From: a virus
Taxonomy: Duplodnaviria; Heunggongvirae; Uroviricota; Caudoviricetes
IMG/VR virus record: IMGVR_UViG_2684623171_000009
Reading direction: 5' to 3' (one strand)
DNA length: 64,000 nucleotides
The first letter of the stretch is position 1; each line of letters begins with the position of its first letter. A program made the position numbers and the translations under genes. Below, one piece after another: positions 46,941 through 53,657 of this stretch. Under the pieces are notes generated by a model. The model searched no databases. It was given only the letters and a program-made list of their open reading frames with translations, and was not told where the DNA came from.

Positions 46941-46968
46941 TTTTCATCTGATTATTATTTTTTGGCTC

Positions 46969-47044
46969 GGCCCTTTAGCTCAGTGGTGAGAGCGAGCGAC
47001 TCATAATCGCCAGGTCGCTGGTTCAAATCCAGCAAGGGCCACCA
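46969..47044 (+). tRNA. ileZ: tRNA-Ile2 (anticodon CAU), second copy
   Basis: Same cloverleaf as 14210..14285 with one substitution in the anticodon stem. Confidence 0.85.
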
Positions 47045-47051
47045 TCACAAA

Positions 47052-47131
47052 CCGCCATTAGCTTATCAGGAAGAGCAGACGACACCATAACAGGGTTGTT
47101 GGTGCGGGGCCGCGTCCCCGATGGCGGTCCA
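47052..47131 (+). pseudogene. Degenerate tRNA-like sequence (argN position)
   Basis: Acceptor-stem halves and 3' CCA conserved with 14293..14369, but the D/anticodon region is replaced and the T-loop is non-canonical. Confidence 0.4.
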
Positions 47132-47144
47132 TTATCGGTATTCT

Positions 47145-47221
47145 GCGTTGTTAGCTCAGCCGGACAGAGCAATTGCCTTCTAAGCAATCGGTCAGTGGTT
47201 CGACTCCACTACAACGCGCCA
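47145..47221 (+). tRNA. argO: tRNA-Arg (anticodon UCU), second copy
   Basis: Anticodon loop CUUCUAA; acceptor stem fully paired (GCGTTGT/ACAACGC). Confidence 0.85.
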
Positions 47222-47234
47222 CACTTATTTTCCA

Positions 47235-47258
47235 GGCTCGCTTCGGCGGGCCTTTTTT
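47235..47258 (+). terminator. Intrinsic terminator after the tRNA cluster
   Basis: GGCTCGC-TTCG-GCGGGCC hairpin followed by T6. Confidence 0.5.
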
Positions 47259-47390
47259 GTATCTGCGCCACGCCCGGCGCATACCAACCACAGAGCCTTT
47301 CGGGGGTGAGCTTACGGAGTGGTCAGTGTGACTTTCTCTGTGGGCAGATCGCTCCCGGGCGTTGGCTCACCCACCCAAAGGAACGTCACG

Positions 47391-47822
47391 ATGTTTGGAA
47401 TCTTCAAAAAGAAAACCCGCAGAGCGGCAACGGAAATTAAAAAGTTTGAAAAACGCGATCTGGCACAGGTGGTGATTAACGCCGCATACCTGGTGGCCTG
47501 TGCAGATGGTGAATGTGAGGCATCCGAGAAAGCGAAGATCGAACAGGTACTGCGTAATCAGCCTGCGCTGTCCGCGTTTACGTCAGAAATTAATGCGATT
47601 AGCGCAACCATTATCGGTCAGCTGGATACGAACTTTAAAACTGGTCGTCGTGCGGCGTTACGTGAGATTGAGGATGTGAAACACGATACGCGTGAAGCGG
47701 AAGATGTGCTGGATGTGGCGGTGGCCATTGCGGAGGCAGACGGCGAAATTGAGCCGGAAGAGCGCAAGGTGCTGGAAGAGATTGCCGGTGTTCTGGGTCT
47801 TCGTCTGGAGAATCACCTGTGA
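47391..47822 (+). CDS. TerB-domain protein (intact, 143 aa)
   Basis: RBS AAAGGAACG before ATG; TerB-like repeats as in 14603..15064. Confidence 0.7.
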   Translation: MFGIFKKKTRRAATEIKKFEKRDLAQVVINAAYLVACADGECEASEKAKIEQVLRNQPALSAFTSEINAISATIIGQLDTNFKTGRRAALREIEDVKHDTREAEDVLDVAVAIAEADGEIEPEERKVLEEIAGVLGLRLENHL

Positions 47823-47986
47823 CGGTAAAACTGCGCCTGGCTGTGGCTGCACTCCTGCTGTTTCTGGTGGTGATGGTGGATTTCACCAGCAGAATCATGT
47901 CGGTGCTGGCGGATGGGGTGCTGGTCTGCGGCATTGTGGTATTGCTGTGGCCGGTGATAAAAAGAAACAGCCTGCATAATGCTTGA
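47819..47986 (+). CDS. Small membrane protein (55 aa), GTG start overlapping the TerB stop
   Basis: Paralog of 15061..15228. Confidence 0.45.
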   Translation: MTVKLRLAVAALLLFLVVMVDFTSRIMSVLADGVLVCGIVVLLWPVIKRNSLHNA

Positions 47987-50554: not shown

Positions 50555-50598
50555 CTTTACTTTCATTTTCTGTCGGCGGTGACGGAGACATACATCAG

Positions 50599-50805
50599 AT
50601 GGAAAAAATCACAACAGGTGTGTCATACACCACGTCAGCGGTGGGGACGGGATACTGGTTACTGCAGCTGCTGGACAAAGTCTCTCCGTCCCAGTGGGTG
50701 GCGATAGGCGTGCTGGGGAGTCTGCTGTTTGGGCTGCTGACATATCTGACGAACCTGTATTTCAAGATTAAAGAAGACCGGCGTAAGGCGGCGCGGGGAG
50801 AGTAA
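50599..50805 (+). CDS. Holin, second copy
   Basis: Identical protein to 17842..18048. Confidence 0.8.
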
Positions 50806-50806
50806 A

Positions 50807-51154
50807 GTGATGAAGAAAAAATACGAACTGGTTGTTAAAGGGATAAATAATTACCCGGATAAGATTACTGTTACTGTGGCACCGGAAATTGGTGGGTATC
50901 CGTCACTGTTGTTGCCAGATGTGGCGATTAGTCTTGACCGTACTGAAGGTGCCACGCTGGAGTTTTACGAAGCTGAGGCGAAAAAGCAGGCGAAGCAGTT
51001 TTTCATGGATGTTGCTGCCGGGTTATGTGAAGGGGATGGTCCGTTACCGGAAAAGCGTCCCGTAATTTTAGAGGCGCAGGATGTGTTGATAACCTACAGA
51101 GGAAAACTACCGGGAATAATTACGGGTTCTCTGAAGACTCCACCGCTGGCCTGA
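50807..51154 (+). CDS. Lysis-cassette hypothetical protein (intact, 115 aa)
   Basis: Uninterrupted version of the IS-disrupted gene at 18050. Confidence 0.5.
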   Translation: MMKKKYELVVKGINNYPDKITVTVAPEIGGYPSLLLPDVAISLDRTEGATLEFYEAEAKKQAKQFFMDVAAGLCEGDGPLPEKRPVILEAQDVLITYRGKLPGIITGSLKTPPLA

Positions 51155-51204
51155 AGACTTAACATATCCAGGGATTTGAAATCGATAAACCCTGATAAAT
51201 ATCC

Positions 51205-51738
51205 ATGAACGCAAAAATCAGATACGGCCTGTCGGCTGCCGTTCTGGCGCTGATTGGTGCAGGGGCGTCTGCGCCTGAAATCCTCGACCAGTTTCTGGAT
51301 GAAAAGGAAGGTAACCACACCACAGCATACCGTGATGGTGCGGGTATCTGGACCATCTGCCGTGGAGCCACCCGGGGGGATGGTAAGCCTGTTATTCCTG
51401 GCATGAAGCTGTCGAAGGAAAAATGCGACCGGGTTAACGCCATTGAGCGTGATAAGGCGCTGGCATGGGTGGAGAAAAACATCAGAGTGCCGCTGACCGA
51501 ACCCCAGAAAGCGGGGATCGCGTCATTCTGTCCGTACAACATTGGCCCCGGTAAGTGTTTCCCGTCGACGTTTTACAGACGGATTAATGCAGGAGATCGA
51601 AAAGGTGCCTGCGAAGCGATTCGCTGGTGGATTAAGGACGGTGGCAGGGACTGCCGTATTCGCTCAAATAACTGTTACGGTCAGGTATCCCGTCGTGACC
51701 AGGAGAGCGCGCTGGCGTGCTGGGGAATCGACAGATAA
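51205..51738 (+). CDS. Endolysin (lysozyme, SAR type), second copy
   Basis: Identical protein to 20898..21431. Confidence 0.8.
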   Translation: MNAKIRYGLSAAVLALIGAGASAPEILDQFLDEKEGNHTTAYRDGAGIWTICRGATRGDGKPVIPGMKLSKEKCDRVNAIERDKALAWVEKNIRVPLTEPQKAGIASFCPYNIGPGKCFPSTFYRRINAGDRKGACEAIRWWIKDGGRDCRIRSNNCYGQVSRRDQESALACWGIDR

Positions 51739-52008
51739 GCAGAATATTTTGCTGAAAAATGAGGTTTGCTTACATGGACGGATAACACGAAATCCTGCAA
51801 ATTGGCAAAATGTAAGTGAATAAAGTCAAAACAGTTGTTTAACACTCAGGCACCGTAATGATGCCTTTGTCATTTCTGCGCATCTCACGCGCATCTCACA
51901 ACACAGAACCTTTCAGGATGACCCTTGAGGATACCGGTTTGGCTGTCGGTGCCTTTCTGTGGGCTGGATTCCTGTGAGACAAGGTTCATCACTAAAAGGA
52001 AATAACCG

Positions 52009-52578
52009 ATGAATATGATGGCCGTGCCGTTTCACGGCAACTCTCTTTATGTAGTTAACCATAATGGCGAACCATACGTTCCCATGAAACCTGTCGTTGC
52101 GGGGATGGGGCTGGCCTGGCAATCACAGTTGGCTAAGTTAAGACAGCGTTTTGCGTCAACTATAACGGAAATCGTTATGGTTGCTGAGGATGGGAAACAA
52201 CGCAATATGGTGTCCATGCCACTTCGAAAACTTGCCGGCTGGCTACAAACCATTAATCCCAACAAAGTAAAACCCGAAATCCGCGATAAGGTCATCCGGT
52301 ATCAGGAAGAGTGCGACGATGTTCTTTACGAGTACTGGACGAAGGGTTTTGTCGTTAATCCCCGTAAAATGAGCGTGATGGAAGAACTCAACCAGGCTTG
52401 TGCTGACATGAAACGGGATAAAAACATTGCCAGTGTGTTTGCTACCGGGCTGAATGAGTGGAAACAGGTTAAAGCCGCGCATGTATCAAAAATCCGTACG
52501 CTGGTAAATGAAGCGAATATGCTGATTGATTTTGTCCTGGCTGATACAGGCAAAGGGAAAATAACAAAGGCGGATTGA
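52009..52578 (+). CDS. Putative antirepressor-like protein, second copy
   Basis: Identical protein to 21702..22271. Confidence 0.4.
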   Translation: MNMMAVPFHGNSLYVVNHNGEPYVPMKPVVAGMGLAWQSQLAKLRQRFASTITEIVMVAEDGKQRNMVSMPLRKLAGWLQTINPNKVKPEIRDKVIRYQEECDDVLYEYWTKGFVVNPRKMSVMEELNQACADMKRDKNIASVFATGLNEWKQVKAAHVSKIRTLVNEANMLIDFVLADTGKGKITKAD

Positions 52579-52720
52579 TGGGGTGGCTAATGATATCAGA
52601 TAAACTCATAACGCTGGTGAAGAGCCTCTGTGTACTTGTCGGCATTTCATTTTCACTAATGCTGGTTGCTCTTTTTCTTTCCATGGCCTGGATGGCGTTG
52701 ACTTCGGCAGGGCTGGTGGG

Positions 52721-53194
52721 GTGAGCATAAACCGAATGCTTTCCGCGTTTACCGTTATTCTGCTGGTGGTCTGTGGTGCGCTTAGTCTGGGGCTGAATCA
52801 TTACCGCGATAACGCCATAACCTACAAAGAGCAGCGCGATAAAAAAGTCAGTGAGCTGGAGCTGGCAAATGCAACCATTACTGATATGCAGCAGCGCCAG
52901 CGTGATGTTGCTGCACTTGATGCCAGATACTCGAGGGAATTAGCTGATGCGAGAGCTGAAAATGAAACTCTGCGTGCTGATGTTGCCGCTGGTCGTAAGC
53001 GCCTGCGCATCAACGCCAACTGTCCAGGCTCCTTGCGTAAAGCCCCCATCACCTCCGGCGTGGATAATGCAACCGGTCCCCGACTGGCAGAAGCCGCTGA
53101 ACGGGATTATTTCATCCTCAGAGAACGGCTGATGGCAATGCAGAAGCAACTGGAAGGAGCACAGGAATATATCCGTACCCAGTGTATACCGTGA
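52721..53194 (+). CDS. Spanin Rz, second copy (diverged N- and C-termini)
   Basis: GTG start; ...LNHYRDNAITYK...; ends TQCIP. Confidence 0.8.
   Translation: MSINRMLSAFTVILLVVCGALSLGLNHYRDNAITYKEQRDKKVSELELANATITDMQQRQRDVAALDARYSRELADARAENETLRADVAAGRKRLRINANCPGSLRKAPITSGVDNATGPRLAEAAERDYFILRERLMAMQKQLEGAQEYIRTQCIP
52947..53132 (+). CDS. Spanin lipoprotein Rz1, second copy
   Basis: Lipobox [31 protein letters not shown]. Confidence 0.75.
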   Translation: MRELKMKLCVLMLPLVVSACASTPTVQAPCVKPPSPPAWIMQPVPDWQKPLNGIISSSENG

Positions 53195-53657
53195 TGTTTT
53201 GTTACGAAGGTGTTACTGGTAACGTTAAGGTAATTTAACAAAGAGTCAGTTCCGGACTTTATAGTGTGCTCAGTTCATGGCCAAAAACGATTTCTGTGAT
53301 AAATATTTTGAATATTATTTACAGGTAAATGGAGTGGGGCACATGGATAGAAATATTACAATAGAGTATGAAGTATATGCCCGTATTGTATGGGCAGAGA
53401 AGGCAAAAACATGGTAATTCCGTGTGTTGCCATGATACCTGATTGGCAGAATTGTTGTTTGGTTTTGAGTATATAGTCAGCGTCTTTTGTTCGGTAATTG
53501 CTCTTTCAATTAAAATGCCAGATATGATTTGCTTTTCTTTGTTGTTTAGTTTTTTTGTATATTATTTTTATTGTTTTTATATAATTAGTTTTTTATTGTT
53601 GTCTTATTAAGGACGGTAAATTCAGGATGGCAGTCTGTAGATAAACGGAGGTTACTT

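Follow-up and report, generated by a model that had tools for sequence, protein, structure and literature searches.

A late-region module shared by the tandem Sp12- and Sp11-like prophages of Escherichia coli O157:H7 as a substrate for crossover deletion and probable gene conversion

Does a segment of about 6.2 kb that occurs twice in one stretch of prophage DNA represent a genuine pair of paralogous copies, and do these copies recombine? The question is raised by a sequence of 64,000 nucleotides (IMG/VR virus record IMGVR_UViG_2684623171_000009, Caudoviricetes), the whole of which is called the window here. A preliminary description of the window had reported that a late-region block, running from transfer RNA (tRNA) genes through genes for TerB, an esterase, a holin, a hypothetical protein, an endolysin and an antirepressor to Rz/Rz1, stands in two prophages at very high identity, and had proposed that such blocks are recombination substrates. 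We assign a probability of roughly 93% to the following answer: the window holds tandem equivalents of prophages Sp12 and Sp11 of E. coli O157:H7 Sakai, which share a paralogous module that recombines by crossover deletion as well as by conversion.

Self-BLAST of the window and pairwise alignment found the block in both prophages, within a few bases of where it had been placed before. The copies are direct repeats, both on the + strand, 32.76 kb apart (51 kb in Sakai). Two collinear matches were obtained, 14206-18341 against 46965-51099 (97.6% identity, 4,144 columns, 7,094 bits) and 20772-22882 against 51079-53184 (95.5%, 2,117 columns, 3,362 bits); E was 0 for both, which excludes chance similarity. 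For a global alignment, copy 1 was first freed of the insertion sequence (IS) ISEc8 together with one of the two 8-bp repeats that make up its target duplication. The resulting 6,232 columns comprised 6,033 identical columns, 182 substitutions and 17 gap columns, corresponding to 96.8% identity. Homology begins 4 bp 5' of the first tRNA and stops 10 bp short of the Rz stop codon. Scored per 100 columns, identity is a mosaic: 72% over the argN stretch, 99-100% from TerB to the middle of the esterase gene, 89-92% in a 200-bp patch within that gene (16080-16280), 87% in the interval containing a 66-bp patch of the esterase-holin spacer, and 100% over 2.2 kb that include the holin, ydfR, endolysin and antirepressor genes (17678-22327 without the IS, equal to 50435-52634). 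The 48-residue open reading frame (ORF) and Rz/Rz1, at 67-92%, are the most diverged part of the block. Thus, the very high identity claimed earlier holds as an average and fails locally, over Rz/Rz1 and argN.

The window as a whole matched the chromosome of E. coli O157:H7 FRIK2455 with no mismatches and two single-base gaps, and in this chromosome ynfA-ynfB-speG lie directly left of window position 1. In Sakai, the homologous DNA is covered by the annotated features “prophage Sp12” (on the ynfA side) and “prophage Sp11”; by alignment to Sakai, the Sp12 equivalent occupies about 1-32783 and the Sp11 equivalent begins at about 32784. The order at the locus, Sp12 beside ynfA and Sp11 distal, is that of the Sakai pair (Sp12 being CP-933P of EDL933, at the ydfJ-ynfA site), and the chromosomal neighbourhood, the gene order and both block copies are alike as well. 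Most segments are 99.8-99.98% identical to the Sakai prophages, with the exception of the Sp12 head region (96.9%); copy 1 is 99.68% identical to the Sp12 copy and copy 2 is 99.65% identical to the Sp11 copy. Sakai also shares the Sp12-type TerB indel and the absence of argN from Sp11. In contrast, the FRIK2455-like strain carries ISEc8 in the ydfR gene of Sp12, which Sakai does not; its Sp12 is without about 19 kb of tail and nleG DNA present in Sakai Sp12; the IS629 copy found close to the junction of Sp11 and Sp12 in Sakai is lacking; the head genes of Sp12 diverge from Sakai by 3% in patches; and the stretch 17588-17859 was exchanged between the copies in the lineage of the window. The 11 lambdoid prophages of Sakai are known to resemble one another, and Sp11 and Sp12 are defective and predicted to be non-excisable, their integrases and repressors being disrupted (PMC2669165). 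The two prophages of the window are different, tandem, defective, lambdoid prophages of E. coli O157:H7.

An error of assembly, in which one block was written twice or two copies were wrongly phased, has to be considered, as 6-kb repeats that are perfectly identical over 2.2 kb are longer than short reads and the 66-bp patch, which is swapped relative to Sakai, has the pattern that mis-phasing could yield. However, the copies differ at 199 columns, their flanks are unique and only one of them contains an IS with its target duplication. Moreover, the two-copy architecture is present in the Sanger-finished Sakai genome as well as in FRIK2455, FRIK2533, FRIK2069 and FRIK944, among them several independent long-read assemblies. 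The sequence of copy 2 is carried at 100% by FRIK2455 and many other E. coli O157:H7 chromosomes assembled in different laboratories, and that of copy 1 at 100% by BB24-1. An artefact is largely refuted by these observations and retains hardly any probability.

A crossover between two such direct repeats is expected to drop the interval and to leave the order Sp12 early region, antiterminator gene Q, hybrid block, pchB and Sp11 late genes. A chimeric query composed of window positions 13400-14205, 46965-53184 and 53185-54000 was searched in all complete E. coli genomes. It was covered to 100% in 22 records, 18 times in one piece and four times in two pieces split by IS1203, whereas genomes with the tandem pair cover it to 90% only. 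Recombinant isolates, for which the preliminary description had advised looking, are therefore at hand in the form of 22 complete genomes with a single hybrid prophage. Five of the 22 were inspected for genomic context. In PNUSAE147324, RIMD 0509939, NE 1092-2 and ERL05-0623 the hybrid prophage starts at ynfA, and in ERL06-2442 it starts in the same Sp12 int-xis-exo context. All five contain the Sp12 early region, Q, three tRNAs, the Sp12-type TerB gene, the rest of the block and pchB; in PNUSAE147324 and RIMD 0509939 the fetched DNA runs on into Sp11 late genes. The five were typed at the 184 alignment columns at which both the window strain and Sakai separate Sp12 from Sp11. Every hybrid reads Sp12-type left and Sp11-type right of a switch, and the switch has a different position in each (Table 1). 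Five distinct junctions in different lineages indicate repeated, independent deletions.

The hybrids at ynfA might instead be independent acquisitions of differently mosaic phages, given that lambdoid phages are mosaic, that Q-block-pch combinations could occur in free phages and that the pattern of ERL06-2442 is more complex than that of the others. This is highly improbable in view of the arms: on the left, the four ynfA hybrids carry Sp12 sequence all the way from ynfA to Q, most of the protein accessions being shared (ERL06-2442 agrees with them in its Sp12 context); on the right, Sp11 sequence begins with pchB and extends, in the hybrids fetched that far, into the Sp11 late genes; and the switches lie at five different places, all inside the shared block. 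Furthermore, the same deletion has been observed within one farm lineage, in which FRIK1275 and FRIK1625 have lost 47.7 kb between two adjacent prophages (Stanton et al., 2020; PMC7430833). That deletion, confirmed with primers named after ECs_2180 (Sp11) and ECs_2272 (Sp12), was flanked by a direct repeat of 822 bp that overlaps the antirepressor gene; the same paper cites Chen et al. (2013; AEM 79:1934) for similar spontaneous Sp11-Sp12 deletions arising in laboratory Sakai. The published event took place between direct repeats of tandem prophages and its antirepressor junction lies inside the present block. Unlike FRIK1275 and FRIK1625, the window represents the undeleted tandem state, and the five crossovers mapped here, at 15.39-22.71 kb of the copy-1 numbering, add natural events to those published. 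Hybrid genomes, five crossover points and published deletions together support the proposal that the block is a recombination substrate.

Exchange between the copies also took place without deletion. The two copies of the window were aligned with the two Sakai copies (four-way alignment) and additionally with the five hybrids (nine-way alignment). In the 66-bp patch of the esterase-holin spacer, two alleles were found: one in Sakai Sp12, NE 1092-2 and ERL05-0623, and the other in Sakai Sp11, PNUSAE147324, RIMD 0509939 and ERL06-2442. The window strain shows the reverse arrangement, with the Sp11 allele in copy 1 and the Sp12 allele in copy 2. In all, 19 sites of copy 2 between 17588 and 17859 are Sp12-type, namely the 13 of the patch and six more at 17690-17859, and the long stretch of perfect identity arises because copy 2 is Sp12-type at these six sites, where Sp11 of other strains differs. 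Mismatches to Sakai number 21 in the 6.2 kb of the block versus seven in 20.9 kb of flanking Sp11 DNA, a roughly tenfold higher density. The simplest reading of these patterns is gene conversion, either between the copies or involving other paralogues. The swap of the patch, which sets the window apart from Sakai and four other lineages, could also stem from one reciprocal exchange in the FRIK2455 lineage instead of two conversions, for instance if the circle between the copies was excised at one point of the repeat and re-integrated at another. We consider this only tentatively, as a rather unlikely explanation; the swapped patch adjoins a one-way conversion tract that spans 17690-17859 or more. 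If a reciprocal exchange did occur, excision would be reversible and the tandem pair would be dynamic, not merely decaying by deletion.

Two further properties of the block were considered and rejected. The 66-bp patch is not an invertible segment, as its alleles are no reverse complements of each other (at best 38/121 matches at any offset). Chi sites (GCTGGTGG) number 18 in the window, 14 of them on the + strand, versus 2.75 in shuffled sequences. Eighteen sites in DNA of this length is about the ordinary density for the E. coli chromosome, and this density suggests that the prophages are well adapted to their host. The block itself has just one Chi site in copy 1 and three in copy 2, with no sign of a special hotspot.

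Several points weigh against repeated crossover deletion and conversion as the account of these data. The genomic context of the hybrids is known from five of the 22 records. ERL06-2442 has an extra Sp11-type patch at 16988-17419 and hence no single clean switch; this needs at least one further exchange or a polymorphism of the lineage. The direction from tandem pair to hybrid is inferred by parsimony from five junctions and not from a dated phylogeny. Finally, the donor of the converted sequence is uncertain, because each genome has at least ten further paralogous copies.

How did two neighbouring prophages come to share the block? The flanks of the copies differ. Upstream of copy 1 lies a gene matching Phage_antiter_Q (13304-13999, Pfam, 7e-92). 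Upstream of copy 2, an AraC-family gene (46227-46940; HTH_AraC, 2.9e-13) adjoins the tRNAs; its name is presumably PsrA, and a literature search on psrA/pchB/Sp11 gave nothing relevant. The putative antiterminator gene of copy 2 lies about 1.3 kb upstream, beyond the AraC-like gene, and corresponds to ECs_2193 (DUF1133 family), a “phage antiterminator” according to the Sakai annotation. Downstream of copy 2 is a PerC-family gene (53658-53972, pchB in Sakai) followed by lambda-type head genes, whereas copy 1 is followed by a different, non-lambda-type terminase-capsid-portal set. When the block was used as a query, Shiga toxin (Stx) 1a-converting phages matched its positions 1047-6225, from just past DUF3927 to the end of Rz, at about 97%, the TerB part being unmatched, and matches were found at 10-16 places per O157 genome. 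This distribution indicates a shared lambdoid module rather than a duplication in place.

A recent segmental duplication, by which the late region of one prophage was copied into its neighbour, would account for the 2.2 kb of perfect identity and for holin, endolysin and antirepressor proteins that are identical between the copies. It is nevertheless very unlikely: besides the occurrence of the block in Stx1a phages and elsewhere in O157 genomes, 184 differences between the copies are fixed in Sakai and the window strain, including those of Rz at 67-92% identity, so that the copies are older than the radiation of O157 strains. The identical stretch is better explained by conversion, as Sp11 of other strains differs at six sites there. 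In order and families, the shared block agrees with the late module of Stx and other lambdoid phages (Q - ileZ/argN/argO - stx - nanS-p - S - R - Rz). Stx phages carry stx downstream of the tRNAs, whereas TerB and DUF3927 occupy that slot in the window; Sp11 further differs by the AraC-like regulator gene between antiterminator and tRNAs.

These features can be combined in a model. Each prophage holds its own copy of the module, which would form the promoter-proximal part of a Q-dependent late operon, and the paralogy derives from exchangeable modules common to lambdoid phages instead of a segment duplicated in place. As direct repeats, the copies serve as substrates for homologous recombination, presumably RecA-dependent, with two outcomes. 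A crossover removes the interval between the copies and yields a single hybrid prophage, and a non-crossover exchange (gene conversion) would homogenise stretches, placing patches of 100% identity beside patches diverged by 10-30%. The lesions of the block differ in age: the TerB indel and the decayed argN are old, fixed differences between Sp12 and Sp11, and the ISEc8 insertion is a recent event.

Table 1. Coordinates of the block copies, their features and the switch points of five hybrid prophages (positions in the window; hybrid switches in copy-1 coordinates).
Feature	Position	Strand	Evidence or remark
Late-region block, copy 1 (Sp12-like), ISEc8 included	14206..22882	+	self-BLAST, global alignment
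ileZ, tRNA with anticodon CAT (annotated tRNA-Ile; Sakai ileZ6), copy 1	14210..14285	+	ARAGORN; Rfam 72.5 bits
argN, tRNA-Arg(TCG) (Sakai argN4), intact in copy 1 only	14293..14369	+	ARAGORN; Rfam 44.4 bits, threshold 29
argO, tRNA-Arg(TCT), copy 1	14383..14459	+	ARAGORN, Rfam, Sakai annotation
TerB-family gene, copy 1, open from TTG at 14636	14636..15064	+	Pfam TerB 4.8e-14; RefSeq WP_001303509.1
DUF3927 small protein gene, copy 1	15061..15228	+	54/55 residues identical to copy 2
STnc100-family small RNA-like element, copy 1	15233..15405	+	Rfam gathering-level, 101.8 bits
NanS-p-type sialate O-acetylesterase gene (DUF1737-SASA-DUF6645), 616 residues, copy 1	15543..17393	+	611/616 residues identical to copy 2
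Two-allele patch, esterase-holin spacer, 66 bp, 13 differences	17588..17653 (copy-2 counterpart 50345-50410)		four-way and nine-way alignments
Class II (phage 21 S-type) holin gene, copy 1	17842..18048	+	68/68 residues identical to copy 2
ydfR/DUF1327 gene truncated by ISEc8	18053..18346	+	93 native residues, then IS-derived codons; annotated “YdfR family protein, incomplete”
ISEc8 (IS66 family), 2,442 bp, tnpA, tnpB and DDE transposase ORFs	18330..20771	+	junctions, Pfam
Endolysin (phage lysozyme) gene, copy 1	20898..21431	+	177/177 residues identical to copy 2
P22-type antirepressor (Ant) gene, copy 1	21702..22271	+	189/189 residues identical to copy 2
Rz spanin gene, copy 1 (Rz1 nested at 22645-22830)	22425..22892	+	Pfam Phage_lysis
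Late-region block, copy 2 (Sp11-like), uninterrupted	46965..53184	+	self-BLAST, global alignment
ileZ, tRNA with anticodon CAT, copy 2	46969..47044	+	ARAGORN, Rfam, Sakai annotation
Degenerate argN remnant, copy 2	47052..47131	+	alignment to 14293-14369
argO, tRNA-Arg(TCT), copy 2	47145..47221	+	ARAGORN, Rfam, Sakai annotation
TerB (47391-47822) and DUF3927 (47819-47986) genes, copy 2	47391..47986	+	Pfam, annotation
STnc100-family small RNA-like element, copy 2	47991..48163	+	Rfam gathering-level, 104.7 bits
NanS-p-type esterase gene, copy 2	48300..50150	+	Pfam DUF1737 2e-15, SASA 1e-12, DUF6645 4.6e-18
Holin gene, copy 2	50599-50805	+	Pfam, annotation
YdfR/DUF1327 gene, intact, copy 2	50810-51154	+	Pfam, annotation
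Endolysin gene, copy 2	51205-51738	+	Pfam, annotation
Antirepressor gene, copy 2	52009-52578	+	Pfam, annotation
48-residue ORF (small membrane ORF), copy 2	52578-52724	+	Pfam, annotation
Rz gene, copy 2	52736-53194	+	Pfam, annotation
Rz1 gene, copy 2	52947-53132	+	Pfam, annotation
Hybrid switch, PNUSAE147324	15387-15447		
Hybrid switch, RIMD 0509939	16305-16988		within esterase gene, giving a hybrid protein accession
Hybrid switch, NE 1092-2	17817-17859		
Hybrid switch, ERL05-0623	18301-22347		
Hybrid switch, ERL06-2442	22643-22706		IS1203 in esterase gene

The IS66 insertion that had been noted in copy 1 is ISEc8. It is bordered by the 8-bp target duplication GGATGTGT at 18322-18329 and 20772-20779, and its ends, GTAAGCGTACAGC...GCTGTACGCTTAC, form a perfect 13-bp inverted repeat. 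Its ORFs match the Pfam families HTH_Tnp_1, TnpB_IS66, DDE_Tnp_IS66, zf-IS66 and LZ_Tnp_IS66, and the element shares 99.9% identity with ISEc8 as annotated in Sakai, with the length, the three ORFs and the 8-bp duplication of the known element. The ydfR gene of copy 1 is split after 93 native codons, whereas ydfR of Sakai Sp12 (ECs_2260) is intact. The exact ydfR::ISEc8 junction was found in one piece in 6/5,426 complete genomes (FRIK944, FRIK2455, FRIK2533, FRIK2069, 2-6-2 and BB24-1), and the Sp12 ydfR site is limited to these six; the insertion is recent and confined to a small clade. Because ISEc8 sits between holin and endolysin, a polar effect on the remaining lysis cassette is plausible, and the element probably uncouples the holin from the endolysin and the spanins in the Sp12 copy. 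The junction query also gave two-piece matches in about 278 other O157 genomes (in Sakai, NC_002695.2, at 3483007-3484138 within Sp17), because in most O157 genomes an incomplete ISEc8 lies about 330 bp away from a holin/ydfR/endolysin cassette of another prophage, Sp17.

The tRNA cluster ileZ-argN-argO between the antiterminator and the late genes comprises three tRNAs in copy 1, and those with anticodons CAT and TCT in copy 2. The argN gene is intact in copy 1 and degenerate in copy 2, as the preliminary description had it: at 47052-47131 there was no ARAGORN call and no Rfam match even at E <= 10, and Sakai Sp11 is likewise annotated without argN. A literature search on ileZ/argN/argO together with Shiga toxin found no papers. 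The TerB gene of copy 1 does have a frameshifted start. Reading from its ATG at 14632 yields MFGIFGKKSPQSGNGN and ends at a stop after 16 codons. This ATG is out of frame owing to an indel of 1 nt in a tract rich in A, and the body of the gene (142 residues) can be read only from the TTG at 14636, the start that RefSeq also uses. TerB of copy 2 starts with ATG at 47391 and has 143 residues, 136 of which are identical to copy 1. Sakai Sp12 and each of the five hybrids have the gene in the same 429-nt form, which is thus an old and fixed feature of Sp12 and no sequencing error. The STnc100 element lies between the DUF3927 and esterase genes, with a terminator-like hairpin about 25 bp downstream in both copies. 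The crossover interval of PNUSAE147324 overlaps the 3' end of this element.

The gene content of the block described earlier was recovered by ARAGORN and Pfam, the hypothetical protein belonging to DUF1327/YdfR. The domains of the holin, endolysin, antirepressor and esterase were scored by Pfam on copy 2, and Rz was the one copy-1 lysis gene scored directly. In copy 2, the lysis genes follow each other on one strand as holin (PF04971), endolysin (PF00959), Rz (PF03245) and Rz1 (PF06085), all above the curated cut-offs. Between the copies, Rz is identical at 120 of 152-155 residues and Rz1 at 53/61. Prophage-encoded NanS-p proteins consist of DUF1737, SASA and a C-terminal domain (PMC10462455), an architecture matched by the 616-residue protein, and NanS-p alleles of EDL933 have esterase activity on Neu5,9Ac2 (PMC8065619). 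By its domains and by the position of its gene upstream of the holin, the protein is classified as NanS-p-type, with a predicted esterase activity. Hairpins resembling terminators, identified as consensus matches only, are shared by the copies on the + strand at 14473-14490/47234-47253, 15430-15448/48188-48206 and 17760-17786/50517-50543, and their conservation would fit a Q-antiterminated late operon. Rfam gave nothing credible for the esterase-holin spacer 17394-17841, the best match being to a snoRNA (E = 0.73).

Outside the block, the Sp12 equivalent has been remodelled relative to Sakai. A second ISEc8 is represented by 67 bp of its left end (31465-31531, reverse strand), directly adjoining a remnant of the IS256 family (ISEic2-like; region 31465-32352). 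The roughly 19 kb missing relative to Sakai Sp12 comprise the remainder of this second ISEc8, the nleG pseudogenes and every tail gene as far back as the head-tail adaptor, and the copy missing near the Sp11/Sp12 junction is the IS629/IS1203 copy of Sakai. The match of BB24-1 to the window ends at 31465, despite the common ydfR::ISEc8 insertion. From terminase to portal (23800-31464), the window shows 326 mismatches to Sakai Sp12 in 10.7 kb, clustered at 23.8-26.0, 28.5-29.5 and 30.0-31.4 kb with near-identity between the patches, which looks like further conversion by other paralogous prophages. A 162-bp tandem repeat (30140-30732, 3.7 copies, 97% match) lies in a portal-like gene annotated as frameshifted in RefSeq. 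The early regions of the two prophages, 3588-13282 and 34606-45075, have eleven more collinear homology segments at 75-100% identity, the longest measuring 1,403 bp at 94% over the DUF968/RusA genes; the RNAs DicF (4223-4274, 35240-35291) and sok (11120-11294, 42501-42675) are duplicated there. These segments are possible additional recombination substrates.

The observation made in the preliminary description is genuine and was rightly interpreted, and the phenomenon is already known for O157:H7. All components belong to described families; multiple near-identical lambdoid prophages and NanS-p copies, deletions, inversions and assembly problems are textbook knowledge. The modest additions made here are the boundaries of ISEc8 and its limitation to six genomes, five mapped natural crossovers, and the evidence for conversion in the lineage of the window. 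The block is one of the repeats that make the prophage regions of O157:H7 hard to assemble from short reads, for which the warning that such repeats can collapse is a reasonable general caution. Its recombination alters the patterns seen in pulsed-field gel electrophoresis and whole-genome maps, as 30-51 kb are removed. A crossover always loses the Sp11 early region with the AraC-like gene and, where these are present (as in Sakai), the Sp12 tail and nleG loci as well, whereas pchB, just downstream of the Sp11 copy, is kept in the hybrids. As the block holds one of several NanS-p genes together with rare-codon tRNAs, its recombination shifts their copy number.

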